Source: Eledone cirrhosa
Taxonomy: Eukaryota
NCBI GenBank assembly: GCA_964016885.1
Contig: CAXHJY010000502.1
Location: forward strand, 32,266 to 96,265
Length of the DNA: 64,000 bases
Direction of reading: 5' to 3'
The notes below the pieces were generated by a model. That model was not told where the DNA came from. It did no database searches and saw only the letters and a list, made by a program, of their open reading frames with translations. Position numbers and translations under genes: made by a program. Positions 1 to 64,000 of the stretch are shown here, one piece after another (position 1 is the first letter of the stretch; the number at the start of each line of letters is the position of its first letter).

Positions 1-199
1 TATTTATATATATATATATATATATATATATATGAATATAGACATAGAATATTCGAAAATATTCTGTATGTTTATAATAAACATTTTGAAGACCTAATCG
101 CTATAGAATAGAATACGTCACGTATTACAATTAGATTCTCGATAAAAGCAAGGGAAGTAATCTACTAGCTGTGTCATTCTCGATAAAAGCACTGGATAT

Positions 200-242
200 G
201 TGGTCCTGATGATTTCTAACGAGAATGAAACGCGTAGATTAC
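200..242 (+). ncRNA. Type I hammerhead ribozyme (310-bp unit 1)
   Basis: GTGGTC-CTGATGA-T-TTCT(AACG)AGAA-T-GAAA-CGCG-TA^GATTAC. Stem I GTGGTC/GATTAC, palindromic stem III ACGCGT, GUA cleavage triplet. Confidence 0.92.
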
Positions 243-509
243 TTCCCTTGCTTTTATCGAGAATCTAATTGTAATACGTGACGTATTCTATTCTATAGCG
301 ATTAGGTCTTCAAAATGTTTATTATAAACATACAGAATATTTTCGAATATTCTATGTCTATATTCACATATATATCGCTATTTCAGAGCATTTATTCCAA
401 TTTCTAATTTCTGCCGGACCGGCAACCGCTCTTTCAAACCAGTTCCTGTACACAGCTAAGTATTCTATAAGTCTCTAGCTGTGTCATTCTCGATAAAAGC
501 ACTGGATAT

Positions 510-552
510 GTGGTCCTGATGATTTCTAACGAGAATGAAACGCGTAGATTAC
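510..552 (+). ncRNA. Type I hammerhead ribozyme (310-bp unit 2)
   Basis: Identical to 200-242. Confidence 0.92.
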
Positions 553-819
553 TTCCCTTGCTTTTATCGAGAATCTAATTGTAATACGTGACGTATTCTA
601 TTCTATAGCGATTAGGTCTTCAAAATGTTTATTATAAACATACAGAATATTTTCGAATATTCTATGTCTATATTCACATATATATCGCTATTTCAGAGCA
701 TTTATTCCAATTTCTAATTTCTGCCGGACCGGCAACCGCTCTTTCAAACCAGTTCCTGTACACAGCTAAGTATTCTATAAGTCTCTAGCTGTGTCATTCT
801 CGATAAAAGCACTGGATAT

Positions 820-862
820 GTGGTCCTGATGATTTCTAACGAGAATGAAACGCGTAGATTAC
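820..862 (+). ncRNA. Type I hammerhead ribozyme (310-bp unit 3)
   Basis: Identical to 200-242. Confidence 0.92.
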
Positions 863-1129
863 TTCCCTTGCTTTTATCGAGAATCTAATTGTAATACGTG
901 ACGTATTCTATTCTATAGCGATTAGGTCTTCAAAATGTTTATTATAAACATACAGAATATTTTCGAATATTCTATGTCTATATTCACATATATATCGCTA
1001 TTTCAGAGCATTTATTCCAATTTCTAATTTCTGCCGGACCGGCAACCGCTCTTTCAAACCAGTTCCTGTACACAGCTAAGTATTCTATAAGTCTCTAGCT
1101 GTGTCATTCTCGATAAAAGCACTGGATAT

Positions 1130-1172
1130 GTGGTCCTGATGATTTCTAACGAGAATGAAACGCGTAGATTAC
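1130..1172 (+). ncRNA. Type I hammerhead ribozyme (310-bp unit 4)
   Basis: Identical to 200-242. Confidence 0.92.
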
Positions 1173-1439
1173 TTCCCTTGCTTTTATCGAGAATCTAATT
1201 GTAATACGTGACGTATTCTATTCTATAGCGATTAGGTCTTCAAAATGTTTATTATAAACATACAGAATATTTTCGAATATTCTATGTCTATATTCACATA
1301 TATATCGCTATTTCAGAGCATTTATTCCAATTTCTAATTTCTGCCGGACCGGCAACCGCTCTTTCAAACCAGTTCCTGTACACAGCTAAGTATTCTATAA
1401 GTCTCTAGCTGTGTCATTCTCGATAAAAGCACTGGATAT

Positions 1440-1482
1440 GTGGTCCTGATGATTTCTAACGAGAATGAAACGCGTAGATTAC
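1440..1482 (+). ncRNA. Type I hammerhead ribozyme (310-bp unit 5)
   Basis: Identical to 200-242. Confidence 0.92.
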
Positions 1483-58952: not shown

Positions 58953-59276
58953 TATATATATATTATAAGTCTGTTTTTTACCTATTTTTTACCTATTTTT
59001 TACCTACTCTTACCTAATCCCATTATCTTATCTACTCTTGTCTGTTCTCTTATCCATGTGTCTACTCTTGTCTGTTCTCTTATCCATGTGTATGCTTGTA
59101 TGTAACTATATGTTGACAGCACACCGCCCAACTGTGACTGATAGCACCCCTTATTTTTATTTTTATTTTTATTTTTATTTTTACTTTTATTTTTATTCTT
59201 ATCCTCTATCGTCTATTATTACCTTTCATTCTTCAATGTCTTGGATTTGTTATTGCTTGTATGGTATGTAATTAAC

Positions 59277-59334
59277 CTTTATGCTCTGATGAGTCCCACT
59301 TATAGTGCGGATGAAACAATGTTAGCAAGTAAAG
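59277..59334 (+). ncRNA. Type I HHR (block A, copy 2)
   Basis: Same as 56021-56078. Confidence 0.88.
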
Positions 59335-60465
59335 ATATGCATATGCTATAAGCGTTCTTTGTTATTTATTTATTATTTTACGGCTCTGTCCTCAGACATT
59401 GAGCTAACCTCATACTGCCTGCTGGATAAGTGGAGTGTTATACACCCCTGATCCTTTCCCTAGCATACTATATATACATATATATATGTATATATATATA
59501 CATATATATTTATACATATATACATATATATATATACATATATATATATGTATATATATATACATATATATTTATACATATATACATATATATATATACA
59601 TATATATATATGTATATATATATACATATATATTTATACATATATACATATATATATATACATATATATATATGTATATATATATACATATATATTTATA
59701 CATATATACATATATATATATATATACATATATATATATACATATATATTTATACATATATACATATATATATATATATACATATATATATATACATATA
59801 TATATATATATACATATATATATATACATATATATATATATACATATATATATATATACATATATATATATATACATATATATATATATACATATATATA
59901 TATACATATATATATATATACATATATATATACATATATATATACATATATATATACATATATATATATACATATATATATATATATACATATATATATA
60001 TATATATATATATATATACACACATATATATATACATATATATATATATACATATATATATACATATATATATACATATATATATACATATATATATATA
60101 CATATATATATATATATACATATATATATATATATATATATACATATATATACATATATACATATATATATATATATATATATATACATATATATACATA
60201 TATACATATATATGTTTGTGTCTATATTGTATCTGTATTATTTTTGACCGTCGGTCAGTCAATGGCAACATTGAGGACCGAGTAAGTTAGATATAAAAGA
60301 CAGCGAGAAGCGAAAACCAACCAAACAGTGAGTGTGTTCTGTCATTAATTCTGGCAATATTACGCAAATATGACCCTCCCCAAGTATAACAATATATATA
60401 TATATATATATATATATATATATACATATATATATATATATACATATATATATATATATATACAT

Positions 60466-61075
60466 ATGGTGGCTGCCAACTCGTTTTCGAGTACGGCCAC
60501 TACTTTATATCCATGTAGGAGAACCCCTACCGATGCGCTGAACGACTGTGACTTTTTAGTCCAGCCAGCGACTTGAAAACTCTGGTACAAACACTACACT
60601 TGTGACAATTATTGACACATAGTGCTGGGCCCATGGTACCATGTGACGACAAGTGCAGAGAGATCTCCAGATATAAAGCAATGCCTGTGCCGTGAAGCTT
60701 TTATAGTGAGCAAAGGCACTGCACAAAGCCAGTCCCACTCTCTTAACCAAGATGATATTTACCAAAAAGAAGAACAAGTCAACATCATTGGATACCATCA
60801 GGGTTGCAGGTGTTATATCAGAGTTTTCCTTCTCCTAGAATTCTGCCTTGACAAAGGCTAAGGGGTCATCTCTCCCGGTGATTTTGGATGGCCATTGACT
60901 CTTAAGAGCTCCTTTGCCCTTTGACAGGTTTTGTTTTTAGTCCTGCAGGATGTCCAAAGTCACCCTCCTCACCAAGAAACCTTGGTGGGGTTGCCAGTTT
61001 AGTCGCCAACGACCCGACCATGAGACAGGTTGTACTGGGATACATGTTACCAGTAACACCAACTGGTGACCTGAC
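60466..61075 (-). mobile_element. Bipartite non-autonomous RTE derivative, second subfamily
   Basis: Tail ggtggctgccaactcgttttcgagtacggcc resembles 28180 and 37917. 60690-61075 is collinear with 37990-38502. Confidence 0.82.
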
Positions 61076-61686
61076 ATATACATATATATATATACATATA
61101 TATATATACATATATATATATATACATATATATATATATACATATATATATACATATATATATATATACATATATATATATACATATATATATACATATA
61201 TACATATATATATATATACATATATATATATATACATATATATATATATACATATATATATACATATATATATATATACATATATATATATACATATATA
61301 TATATACATATATATATATATACATATATATATATATACATATATATATATATACATATATATATATACATATATATATTATAAGTCGGTTTTTTACCTA
61401 TTTTTTACCTATTTTTTACCTACTCTTACCTAATCCCATTATCTTATCTACTCTTGTCTGTTCTCTTATCCATGTGTCTACTCTTGTCTGTTCTCTTATC
61501 CATGTGTATGCTTGTATGTAACTATATGTTGACAGCACACCGCCCAACTGTGACTGATAGCACCCCTTATTTTTATTTTTATTTTTATTTTTACTTTTAT
61601 TTTTATTCTTATCCTCTATCGTCTATTATTACCTTTCATTCTTCAATGTCTTGGATTTGTTATTGCTTGTATGGTATGTAATTAAC

Positions 61687-61744
61687 CTTTATGCTCTGAT
61701 GAGTCCCACTTATAGTGCGGATGAAACAATGTTAGCAAGTAGAG
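61687..61744 (+). ncRNA. Type I HHR (block A, copy 3)
   Basis: Same; TAAAG>TAGAG keeps pairing as U.G. Confidence 0.88.
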
Positions 61745-63583
61745 ATATGCATATGCTATAAGCGTTCTTTGTTATTTATTTATTATTTTACGGCTCTGTC
61801 CTCAGACATTGAGCTAACCTCATACTGCCTGCTGGATAAGTGGAGTGTTATACACCCCTGATCCTTTCCCTAGCATACTATATATACATATATATATGTA
61901 TATATATATACATATATATTTATACATATATACATATATATATATACATATATATATATGTATATATATATACATATATATTTATACATATATACATATA
62001 TATATATACATATATATATATGTATATATATATACATATATATTTATACATATATACATATATATATATATACATATATATATATACATATATATATATA
62101 TACATATATATATATATACATATATATATATATACATATATATATATATACATATATATATATACATATATATATATATACATATATATATACATATATA
62201 TATATATACATATATATATACATATATATATACATATATATATACATATATATATATACATATATATATACATATATATATATACATATATATATATATA
62301 TACATATATATATACATATATATATATATACACATATATATATACATATATATATATATACATATATATATACATATATATATACATATATATATACATA
62401 TATATATATACATATATATATATATATACATATATATATATATATATATACATATATATATATAATACATATATATATATACATATATATATATACATAT
62501 ATATATATATATATACATATATATATATATATATATATACATATATATATATATATATATACATATATACATATATATGTTTGTGTCTATATTGTATCTG
62601 TATTATTTTTGACCGTCGGTCAGTCAATGGCAACATTGAGGACCGAGTAAGTTAGATATAAAAGACAGCGAGAAGCGAAAACCAACCAAACAGTGAGTGT
62701 GTTCTGTCATTAATTCTGGCAATATTACGCAAATATGACCCTCCCCAAGTATAACAATATATATATATATATATATATATATATACATATATATATATAT
62801 ATACATATATATATATATATACATATATATATATATATACAAATACATATATATATACATATATATATATATACATATACATATATATATACATATATAT
62901 ATATATACATATACATATATATATACATATATATATATATACATATATATATATATACATATATATATACATATATATATACATATATATATATATACAT
63001 ATATATATATACATATATATATACATATATATATATATATATATATATATACATATATATATATACATATATATATACATATATATATACATATATATAT
63101 ATATACATATATATATACATATATATATATATACATATATATATATATACATATATATATACATATATATATATATACATATATATATATACATATATAT
63201 ATACATATATATATATATACATATATATATATATACATATATATATATATACATATATATATATACATATATATATTATAAGTCTGTTTTTTACCTATTT
63301 TTTACCTATTTTTTACCTACTCTTACCTAATCCCATTATCTTATCTACTCTTGTCTGTTCTCTTATCCATGTGTCTACTCTTGTCTGTTCTCTTATCCAT
63401 GTGTATGCTTGTATGTAACTATATGTTGACAGCACACCGCCCAACTGTGACTGATAGCACCCCTTATTTTTATTTTTATTTTTATTTTTACTTTTATTTT
63501 TATTCTTATCCTCTATCGTCTATTATTACCTTTCATTCTTCAATGTCTTGGATTTGTTATTGCTTGTATGGTATGTAATTAAC

Positions 63584-63641
63584 CTTTATGCTCTGATGAG
63601 TCCCACTTATAGTGCGGATGAAACAATGTTAGCAAGTAGAG
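63584..63641 (+). ncRNA. Type I HHR (block A, copy 4)
   Basis: Same as copy 3. Confidence 0.88.
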
Positions 63642-64000
63642 ATATGCATATGCTATAAGCGTTCTTTGTTATTTATTTATTATTTTACGGCTCTGTCCTC
63701 AGACATTGAGCTAACCTCATACTGCCTGCTGGATAAGTGGAGTGTTATACACCCCTGATCCTTTCCCTAGCATACTATATATACATATATATATGTATAT
63801 ATATATACATATATATTTATACATATATACATATATATATATACATATATATATATATGTATATATATATACATATATATTTATACATATATATATATAC
63901 ATATATATTTATACATATATACATATATATATATACATATATATATATACATATATATATATGTATATATATATACATATATATTTATACATATATACAT

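Follow-up and report, generated by a model that had tools for sequence, protein, structure and literature searches.

The window analysed here, a 64-kb stretch of Eledone cirrhosa DNA, is a (TA)n field occupied by the ends of Penelope-like elements (PLEs) and by non-coding hammerhead repeats (retrozymes). The hammerhead ribozyme (HHR) positions given for its features are matches to a strict type I descriptor unless a change is named. At the left end lies a two-armed 310-nt retrozyme (33..2261), with a short-ended inverted arm (33-165) and 6.8 units (165-2261) that run to a tailed end, each unit holding a minimal type I HHR with a palindromic helix III (cores at 206, 516, 826, 1136, 1446, 1756 and 2066, all +). 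A second 310-nt insertion (4119..4855) joins a tailed inverted arm (4119-4378; HHR 4314, -) to a short-ended direct arm (4379-4855; HHR 4686, +). Next come the 5'-truncated 3' end of a Hydra-type PLE of the PLE4 family (8979..9620, +), whose U3-A8 HHR at 9440 has long helices II and III, and the 5'-truncated Hydra-type PLE1 (10604..14397, -), with an ORF at 12205-14241 (RT, then GIY-YIG), an inverted arm (14169-14397) bearing an HHR at 14297 (+), and a copy of that motif with decayed helix II (10657-10722, -). A partial unit of a 464-nt tandem retrozyme (14437..14867, +; HHR 14538, +) precedes a 608-nt non-coding tandem element (16273..18200, -) of 3.2 units, single-armed and with its fixed 3' end in (TA)n; the 3' end and odd hammerhead-like motif of this family recur in an element at 21357..21735 (+). 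The terminal repeat of a CCHH-type PLE (21907..22140, +; HHR 21935, +) is followed by the full-length but frameshifted Hydra-type PLE2 (22170..26836, +), in which an inverted arm with a short end (22170-22974; HHR 22267, -) accompanies a main arm reaching the tailed end (HHR 26649, +), and by a two-armed 319-nt retrozyme, family B (26962..27593), whose motifs at 27077 (-) and 27448 (+) are members of the U3-A8 family (33/41 copies), each with one core defect of its own. Beyond these are the 5'-truncated Hydra-type PLE3 (33877..36812, +; ORF part 34025-35188; U4C HHR at 36731), the ends of another Hydra-type PLE family (51976..52880; U4A HHR at about 51988-52037, -), a 3' end from the PLE1/PLE2 family that is truncated and carries a fold-back (53881..55356, -; HHR 54069, -) and four 3' ends of a further Hydra-type PLE family (55693..63770, +; ends at 55693, 58973, 61389 and 63286; HHRs 56030, 59286, 61696 and 63593, all +), which have one common 5' start and thus reflect local duplication. 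RTE and restriction-endonuclease LINEs, which are young, also occur in the window, and Rfam gave no ribozyme family for the RTE leader.

The descriptor was run on the window, with 20 dinucleotide shuffles of its 43,219 non-microsatellite bases as control. The initial annotation had listed about 30 type I HHRs, and most of this list stands: 19 of the 30 sites pass the strict descriptor and six are core variants or decayed copies, while four are non-canonical and one fails. Their frequency is also not that of shuffled sequence, as each of the 20 shuffles contained 0 strict matches. Sites 9440 (U3-A8), 36731 (U4C) and 51988 (U4A) have all helices and one core change of a known type; the 51988 core was judged by eye, and the same motif passes a one-mismatch scan in another locus (L040). 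At 16510, 17118, 17724 and 21402 the first core strand is lengthened and a single helix I base pair lies beside the core, and judged by sequence these motifs are hammerhead-like, not canonical. Site 57802 (57769..57930, -) was not accepted, since core words are found near 57860-57912 but helix I is not convincing. In Rfam, no match in the window reached the gathering score, the best HH9 match among the 150 of 455 matches listed being the 464-nt unit (14520-14591, 36.5 bits vs 52); an Rfam E-value scan was dominated by microsatellite matches. The 30 sites are accounted for by about 14 insertion events and about 12 sequence types. Four types are non-coding tandem retrozymes, but six (13 of the 30 sites) are 3'-terminal pieces of truncated autonomous PLEs, Hydra-type in five cases and CCHH-type in one, so that the description of all 12 as non-coding replicons is not supported. 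About half of the listed motifs are PLE ends, and the remainder lie in small non-coding repeats.

None of the three ORF-bearing PLEs of the window is intact; intact ORFs of 741, 737 and 754 aa are found elsewhere in the genome. The window ORFs encode an RT and then a C-terminal GIY-YIG domain without CCHH and with CxxC and CxH. Pfam returned no match for these Hydra-type ORFs, and their assignment to the Hydra clade rests on motifs. As far as the accessible text of Craig et al. (2021, PMC8557442) goes, they resemble that clade in the C-terminal GIY-YIG, in the replacement of CCHH by CxxC and CxH, in the DKT motif (present in PLE1 and locus L365, changed in PLE2) and in the CxCX5C linker (PLE1, PLE3 and locus L225), as well as in having hammerheads, here in the terminal repeat, a (TA)n target, an inverted 5'-truncated copy and a one-sided tail. 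They differ from it by RWR at the RWK position in the PLE2 family and by tails of 77-94 nt instead of 30-40. A protein search found 393 relatives, the nearest named one being an Argonauta hians protein (41%). An endonuclease lies 1.6 kb upstream in one locus (L040) of the 51976..52880 family, and an ORF about 2.2 kb upstream in two loci (L355, L356) of the 55693..63770 family. One short and one tailed end were found in 11/11 copies of the PLE2 family, and the same rule was followed in 5/5 copies of the CCHH-type PLE. In two-armed insertions of the latter, both arms share a fixed 5' start that lies behind a TATA-like box, and they run uncut across their own cleavage site, so that linear, uncut RNA is enough for a two-arm pattern.

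The density of HHRs had been called unusual, and this impression dissolves once (TA)n content is considered. The window holds 19 strict HHRs in 64 kb, compared with 51 in genome stretches placed by hand and totalling 600 kb, a 3.5-fold excess, yet its (TA)n content is 4.2 times that of the sampled stretches (17.7% vs 4.2%), and the density is therefore ordinary for (TA)n-rich DNA of this genome. The preference of RT/GIY-YIG PLEs for (TA)n was borne out: 40 of the 51 sampled motifs lie within 250 nt of a tract, where 28.6% would be expected. That retrozymes are found beside PLEs reflects a common target.

The 310-nt retrozyme has 8,933 exact ribozyme copies in a genome that holds roughly 250,000 hammerheads, and its arrays are 99.4-100% identical across many contigs, with fixed 3' and scattered 5' ends. 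Forty-two of roughly 900 insertions were read, of which 36 are two-armed, five single-armed and one runs into a gap; on contig C1, two-armed insertions occupy 10 of the first 12 loci. Within (TA)n, the two arms of an insertion are oriented tail-out, and an arm can reach 23 units. Their outer ends use two fixed sites about 30 nt apart in the unit, one of them at an internal (AU)n, and wherever both were read one end was short and one tailed (35/35). The inner ends of the arms are scattered; where the arms meet to form a tail-out palindrome, there is either a short insert or microhomology of 0-4 nt. These are insertion marks of the PLE type, carried here by non-coding retrozymes. An assembly artefact was rejected, since the difference between the two outer ends is constant and recurs in PLEs, as was twin priming of the strict L1 type from a single linear RNA, since the inner ends lie away from the start site of the other arm.

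The idea that the neighbouring PLEs are the mobilisers is not supported. The ORF-bearing PLEs of the window are not intact, the retrozyme tail of about 30 nt is unlike that of the Hydra-type PLEs, and no PLE with the conserved end block of the retrozyme was present in 1.87 Mb of loci; 29 loci with the end block shared by retrozymes were all retrozymes, with no PLE among them. A loose end in read set X1 supplied a motif that was tried as a lead to a partner and had no match. The predicted partner is a CCHH-type PLE for the 310- and 319-nt families and a Hydra-type PLE for the 464- and 608-nt families. Three chimeras (L163, L181 and L373) were considered as proof of a particle shared with PLE4; the other arm of L163 and the flank of L373 allow nested insertion with deletion, and L181 alone remains a suggestive hint.

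The units of single insertions bear on the template. In nine of the 42 insertions a variant absent from the other insertions examined (private among 42 of ~900) is fixed in every unit, in up to 21/21 units and, in six of the nine, on both arms. The cleavage junction, predicted after the UA at unit position 72, is identical in 430/431 units and free of indels. Of 77 inner ends, two fall no more than 10 nt from this junction, compared with 5.2 expected, which indicates that the templates were not cut linear monomers. U3-A8 occurs in 14/21 and C3-G8 in 6/21 (counts that ignore relatedness), suggesting that compensatory changes maintain the hammerhead fold, and the circular fold has a computed z of -5.3. 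In L035 and L037 one arm changes haplotype in register, which implies that two RNAs were used there, and the outer block is the commonest haplotype of the genome, not a new mutation; in L305 one singleton is repeated seven units apart. Among the sequencing runs listed as containing the retrozyme, none is given as RNA, and six, from four studies, are of unstated kind; four of these six were examined. Reads of X1 were set aside as evidence, because their 38A allele share (99.5%) is close to the 95% of the genome and nothing marks them as RNA, and so was a cyclic 340-nt contig in X4 and X6, because a tandem array or cross-contamination would yield it as readily as a circle.

Among the other families, the short/tailed rule fits 17 insertions of family B, fails in one and was unreadable in four. 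Family B has an 80-nt end block in common with the 310-nt family, and its arms mostly measure 0.5-1.7 units; old family-B-like arrays are short, with units 83-96% alike. The 464-nt family is tandem and two-armed in L092 and L353. The 310-, 319- and 464-nt families consist of head-to-tail, low-GC units without an ORF (464 nt being just above the 150-450 nt range), with one type I hammerhead per tandem unit (core-defective in both 319-nt copies of the window), and by these genomic criteria would be non-LTR retrozymes. The 608-nt family is single-armed in 17/17 insertions, and so without a PLE-type inverted arm; each unit has one non-canonical hammerhead-like motif that fails the strict descriptor, and Rfam gave no ribozyme family for it. 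Its mode of insertion is that of a retrozyme, but the family is not classed as one.

Taken together, the retrozymes were likely inserted by a PLE protein that most likely copied one circular RNA many times, a reading to which we give a probability of about two in three. PLE mobilisation of the 310-nt retrozyme is strongly supported by its insertion ends, and we infer from its unit variants that copying would be of the rolling-circle type. An array would be transcribed, its hammerheads would cut the transcript to monomers and, by analogy with other animals, a host ligase would close these. The PLE endonuclease would then cut both strands of a (TA)n tract, and each free end would prime reverse transcription at one of the two fixed sites on the same RNA, where the internal (AU)n site could pair with the target. 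Both polymerases would travel round the circle and halt at scattered places, and the two cDNAs would then be joined through the microhomology or short inserts seen at the junctions. The PLEs obey the same two-end rule. For a PLE in vitro, two start sites bound the tail, and both strands are cleaved and extended (PMC11167929). Against a circular template count the minimal hammerheads of PLEs, which cleave poorly, and Xenopus dimers, eight of nine of which were without cleavage.

The strongest competitor holds that a PLE protein copies long, uncut, linear array transcripts, with the hammerhead as a passenger and no circle, and we consider it unlikely. In vitro, the ribozyme of the anole PLE is dispensable and uncut RNA is the main substrate (PMC11167929), which counts against circles; so do the two-armed insertions that the CCHH-type family makes from linear, uncut templates with a fixed 5' site, and the single-armed arrays that the 608-nt family makes with its non-canonical motif. 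However, 5' truncation should then shorten arrays at each round, whereas arms reach 22-23 units, the variants fixed across both arms require a one-unit bottleneck, and compensatory changes keep the hammerhead fold. Improbable by comparison is that PLEs insert one or two units and that arrays grow later on DNA by slippage or unequal exchange, a satellite route discussed in bioRxiv 10.64898/2026.07.22.740005. Growth of this kind would also keep the ends and spread a founder variant to all units, it agrees with the recurrent singleton of L305, and DNA-level duplication is seen at 55693-63770; but the longest arrays belong to the youngest family while those of the older family B are short and unhomogenised, fast growth would be needed at hundreds of loci, and the outer blocks of L035 and L037 are the genome's commonest haplotype. 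Mobilisation by the young LINEs of the window is very improbable, since two internal start sites, a one-sided tail and an inverted arm form a PLE pattern (here and in the PLE literature) and the retrozyme units are without a LINE-type tail.

The circle-template model has been published as a hypothesis, and the insertion anatomy is the new result. For animal non-LTR retrozymes, circle-templated tandem cDNA and PLE mobilisation were proposed in the available text of PMC7229834 and bioRxiv 10.64898/2026.07.22.740005, and circles as templates of more than one unit were already suggested for PLE hammerheads (PMC4209133, as far as accessible). The elements described here resemble the former in that tandem low-GC units of ~300 nt, free of ORFs, each hold a single type I hammerhead and lie in a genome with PLEs (PMC7229834). 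In their available text, the animal retrozyme papers argue from co-occurrence, ribozyme type and, in Xenopus, pLTR homology, whereas the present analysis reads the ends, arms and unit variants directly; the word "inverted" is absent from the text of Cervera and de la Pena (2020, PMC7229834), and Li, Clavereau, Pollet (2026, bioRxiv 10.64898/2026.07.22.740005) do not describe insertion ends in the main text. Unlike the Xenopus retrozymes, those of the octopus gave no pLTR homology to a PLE in the 29 loci and 1.87 Mb. The green anole Poseidon PLE PAc (Frangieh et al., 2024, PMC11167929) likewise has two internal start sites bounding the tail, cuts and extends both strands and is predicted to dimerise; its start-site use in vitro showed no strand difference, whereas here, on a non-coding RNA, one site serves each end in 35/35. 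With the minimal PLE terminal-repeat hammerheads, as seen in the accessible part of Cervera and de la Pena (2014, PMC4209133), the motifs share a weak palindromic helix III, the U3-A8 variant and opposite-strand pairs 100-700 bp apart. The 608-nt and 21357 motifs, in which a GUC is the candidate cleavage site, differ from the variants given there: their first core strand is lengthened, GAAA is preceded by an additional A, helix III is long and proximal helix I is nearly absent, a form seen neither in that part nor in the accessible part of PMC10085705. MRC1 and other non-autonomous Chlamys PLEs are similar in their multicopy head-to-tail insertions with PLE marks; according to the available text, their 3' end resembles an autonomous partner, of a kind not found here, and they are mostly without hammerheads (PMC8557442).

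The point of interest is thus not HHR density but insertion anatomy. The papers cited leave three questions open: what moves retrozymes in animals, whether the template is circular, and which role the hammerhead has in PLEs. The insertion ends provide a direct genomic link from retrozymes to the PLE machinery, and through the rule of one short and one tailed end the two start sites already known are tied to the two strands of a single insertion event. Because this genome combines intact PLE ORFs with a young 310-nt family whose start sites are mapped, in vitro testing is straightforward. In the fullest form of the preferred reading, the two strands of a (TA)n break are both primed by a PLE dimer, which uses two start sites on a single RNA circle made by the ribozyme, and the two polymerases then roll round this circle; in our view this form has an even chance of being correct. 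If so, one mechanism would explain retrozyme arrays and also four features of PLEs (pseudo-LTR, partial tandem, inverted copy and one-sided tail), and a genome with a very young family of 8,900 copies among its many hammerheads would be a direct record of that mechanism.

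In the window, which lies on contig C529 of the 3.0-Gb source genome (G000), (TA)n-type microsatellite makes up about a third of the sequence, with 31 islands between the tracts. The initial annotation counted ~30 hammerhead ribozymes (HHRs) here, and the greater part of this count stands: 19 sites match a strict type I descriptor, which matched nothing in the island sequence when this was shuffled 20 times, and three more sites have full helices and a single core change (36731, U4C; 9440, U3-A8; 51988, U4A). By contrast, the motif at 10657 has decayed, those at 27077 and 27448 belong to family B (the 319-nt retrozyme at 26962..27593, a U3-A8 family) but are defective, and the three sites of the 608-nt repeat, together with 21402, are hammerhead-like but non-canonical, while 57802 was rejected as an HHR. 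An Rfam scan of the window gave nothing at gathering score, HH9 being one sub-threshold match among those listed. The core of family B carries U3-A8 in 33 of 41 copies and an extra A before GAAA in 40 of 41, and across 21 relatives compensatory changes preserve the fold in all three helices and in the 3-8 pair (U-A in 14, C-G in six, other in one), with a covariation score, uncorrected for relatedness, that was reached by none of 500 shuffles. An odd HHR-like motif is common to two families [window 16480-16620 (-) and 21420-21570 (+); fetched loci L036, L093, L035, L165, L033 and L069]; its first core strand is lengthened, either by a single base or by a small hairpin, an extra A precedes GAAA, helix III is long, and GUC is followed by the same six bases in both families. 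The motif may be inactive, or it may represent a new variant of the hammerhead.

Half of the HHR types are ends of Penelope-like elements (PLEs). The ~12 sequence types had been read as non-coding replicons, which holds for four of the 12, namely tandem units of 310, 319, 464 and 608 nt (15 sites), but not for the six (13 sites) that are 3' ends of autonomous PLEs; one type is unsupported and one falls in neither class. Five of the six PLE-end types show Hydra-clade motifs as defined in the available text of one study (PMC8557442), an assignment made by motif without a tree: the PLE1/PLE2 family (HHRs at 10657, 14297, 22267, 26649 and 54069), PLE3 (36731), PLE4 (9440, with an ORF upstream that is intact, at 754 aa, in locus L365), the 56030 family (an ORF lies upstream in two of seven stretches fetched, L355 and L356) and the 51988 family, whose PLE link comes from one locus. 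The other is a CCHH-type PLE (21935). None of the window's three ORF-bearing PLE copies is intact, intact ORFs (741 aa and 737 aa) occur in two of 20 full-length PLE2-family stretches, and the closest named relative of the window PLE protein is from Argonauta hians (41% identity), consistent with a host of octopod type. A local duplication at 55693-63770 contains four PLE 3' ends sharing one 5' start, as well as three identical 162-nt islands (57094, 60218 and 62583) that look like the 3' end of a further PLE family. At 55066-55340 a fold-back inversion lies within a PLE 3' region, its arm stopping short of the normal end, and a diverged 138-nt tandem duplication (52128-52384) lies inside island 51976-52880. 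In short two-armed insertions of the 21935 family, at L271, L272, L279, L283 and L290, both arms start from a single fixed position some 27 nt behind a TATA-like box in the PLE terminal repeat; they read as a linear, SINE-like transcript of 265 nt that was retrotransposed without being cut.

The window also holds RTE-like LINEs [28524-32850 and 45129-48620 (-); 2454-3482 (-)] with AP endonuclease, RT and C2H2 fingers, the two long copies being 94% alike. Their leader near 48050-48250, found again at 32200, 37950 and 60680, was suspected by us to be an HDV-like ribozyme, and Rfam found none in it. LINEs with an RT and a restriction-endonuclease-like C-terminus [39237-42671 (+), 43834-45200 (+) and 27555-27929 (+)], which we take to be R4/Dong-like by motif, include one ORF of 1,144 aa; one fragment adjoins the 319-nt retrozyme.

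The proposal that HHR density is unusual in this window did not survive comparison with sixty 10-kb stretches taken at round-number positions of large contigs of G000, since the window has 3.5x their HHR density at 4.2x their (TA)n share, and tandem units as well as a local fourfold duplication inflate its count. The expected association with (TA)n was borne out: the sample contains 51 strict matches (none in one shuffle of each stretch), 40 of which have a (TA)n tract within 250 nt, compared with 28.6% of positions lying that near. The whole genome is HHR-rich: if the sample is typical of it, there are about 250,000 motifs, compared with 126,247 in axolotl and over 6,000 in a coral, as given for other descriptors in the available text of PMC7229834. 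At least a dozen more HHR types, absent from the window, occur in the sampled stretches, several of them linked to other PLE endonucleases.

The ribozyme of the 310-nt family has 8,509 plus 424 exact copies, and 42 insertions of this family were examined: two in the window (33..2261 and 4119..4855), 20 best matches to the window unit, and 20 further ones, 12 of which were simply the first along contig C1. Arms point outward in the 36 two-armed insertions, while five are single-armed and one enters an assembly gap. Wherever both outer ends are readable (35 of 35), one is a short end, which stops at an internal (AT)n (unit position 198-211) running into the target sequence, and the second is a tailed end about 30 nt beyond (235-244). 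Arms are 0.4 to 23 units long, their inner ends are scattered (two of 77 are no more than 10 nt from the cleavage site vs 5.2 expected), and the junctions between them show microhomology of 0-4 nt or short inserts. The same pairing of ends is seen in 11 of 11 two-armed PLE2-family copies with both ends read (20 stretches), in five of five CCHH-type PLE copies (among 23 of 25 loci displayed) and in the single 464-nt case; the 28 family B loci include 17 that fit, one with two tailed ends and four unreadable. The 608-nt family differs, with a single arm in 17 of 17 insertions, which also bear variants fixed across units. At L181, L373 and L163, retrozyme arms abut PLE4-like 3' ends with no (TA)n between them; L181, a single case, has a 608-nt arm joined tail-out to the tailed end of this different element, and L163 and L373 may be nested insertions.

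Mobilisation of the retrozymes by PLEs is very probable (about 0.9), because inverted truncated copies and a one-sided tail are marks of these elements (PMC8557442, available text), and because the tail corresponds to the interval separating two internal start sites of a PLE protein, by which both strands are cut and extended (PMC11167929). As each insertion has one end of either kind, short and tailed, the two sites are evidently coupled in use, one per side of the target break. Three Hydra-type families have tails of 77-94 nt and the 464-nt family has one of 74 nt, but the tails of the CCHH-type PLE and of the 310/319-nt families measure about 30-45 nt; these lengths suggest that the Hydra-type neighbours do not serve the 310/319-nt families. 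No partner PLE of the 310-nt family was found in 29 loci with the shared end block or in 1.87 Mb of loci. In most events both arms appear to come from one RNA, as pointed to by rare haplotypes that the arms share. A private variant, absent from the other examined insertions, is present in every unit of nine of the 42 insertions, and in both arms of six (13/13, 6/6, 4/4, 16/16, 10/10 and 21/21 units); the tailed arms of L035 and L037 switch in register from the common to the rare haplotype part-way, and the other arm of each is entirely of the rare haplotype.

Long arms would arise if the PLE copied a monomer RNA circle in a rolling-circle mode. Judged from the arrays themselves, this is the best fit for the 310-nt family and a fairly probable one, because arms are long and uniform, variants are fixed and the predicted cleavage junctions are unscarred (identical in 430 of 431 units, no indels). 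Against a circle, one PLE family here yields two-armed insertions whose inferred template is an uncut, linear RNA starting at a fixed 5' site, an anole PLE requires no cleavage in vitro (PMC11167929), and many such ribozymes cleave poorly, according to the available parts of two sources (PMC4209133; bioRxiv 10.64898/2026.07.22.740005). The fixed variants could also descend from unsampled uniform source arrays. Homogenisation of arrays in place is contradicted by four old family-B-related arrays, whose units are merely 83-96% alike.

Circular templates and PLE mobilisation have both been put forward before, in the available text of earlier work: RNA circles were proposed as more-than-unit templates for PLEs in 2014 (PMC4209133), retrozyme mobilisation by PLEs was proposed in 2020 (PMC7229834), and a 2026 preprint argued for it from co-occurrence and pLTR homology (bioRxiv 10.64898/2026.07.22.740005). 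No publication on retrozyme insertion ends or cephalopod retrozymes was found in a literature search that most subscription papers lay outside. The elements described here are real, and most belong to categories already described, either hammerheads of PLE termini or non-LTR retrozymes. Beyond these, the insertions preserve an unusually clear genomic trace of the way in which retrozyme arrays are integrated, and with it the published circle hypothesis becomes testable.
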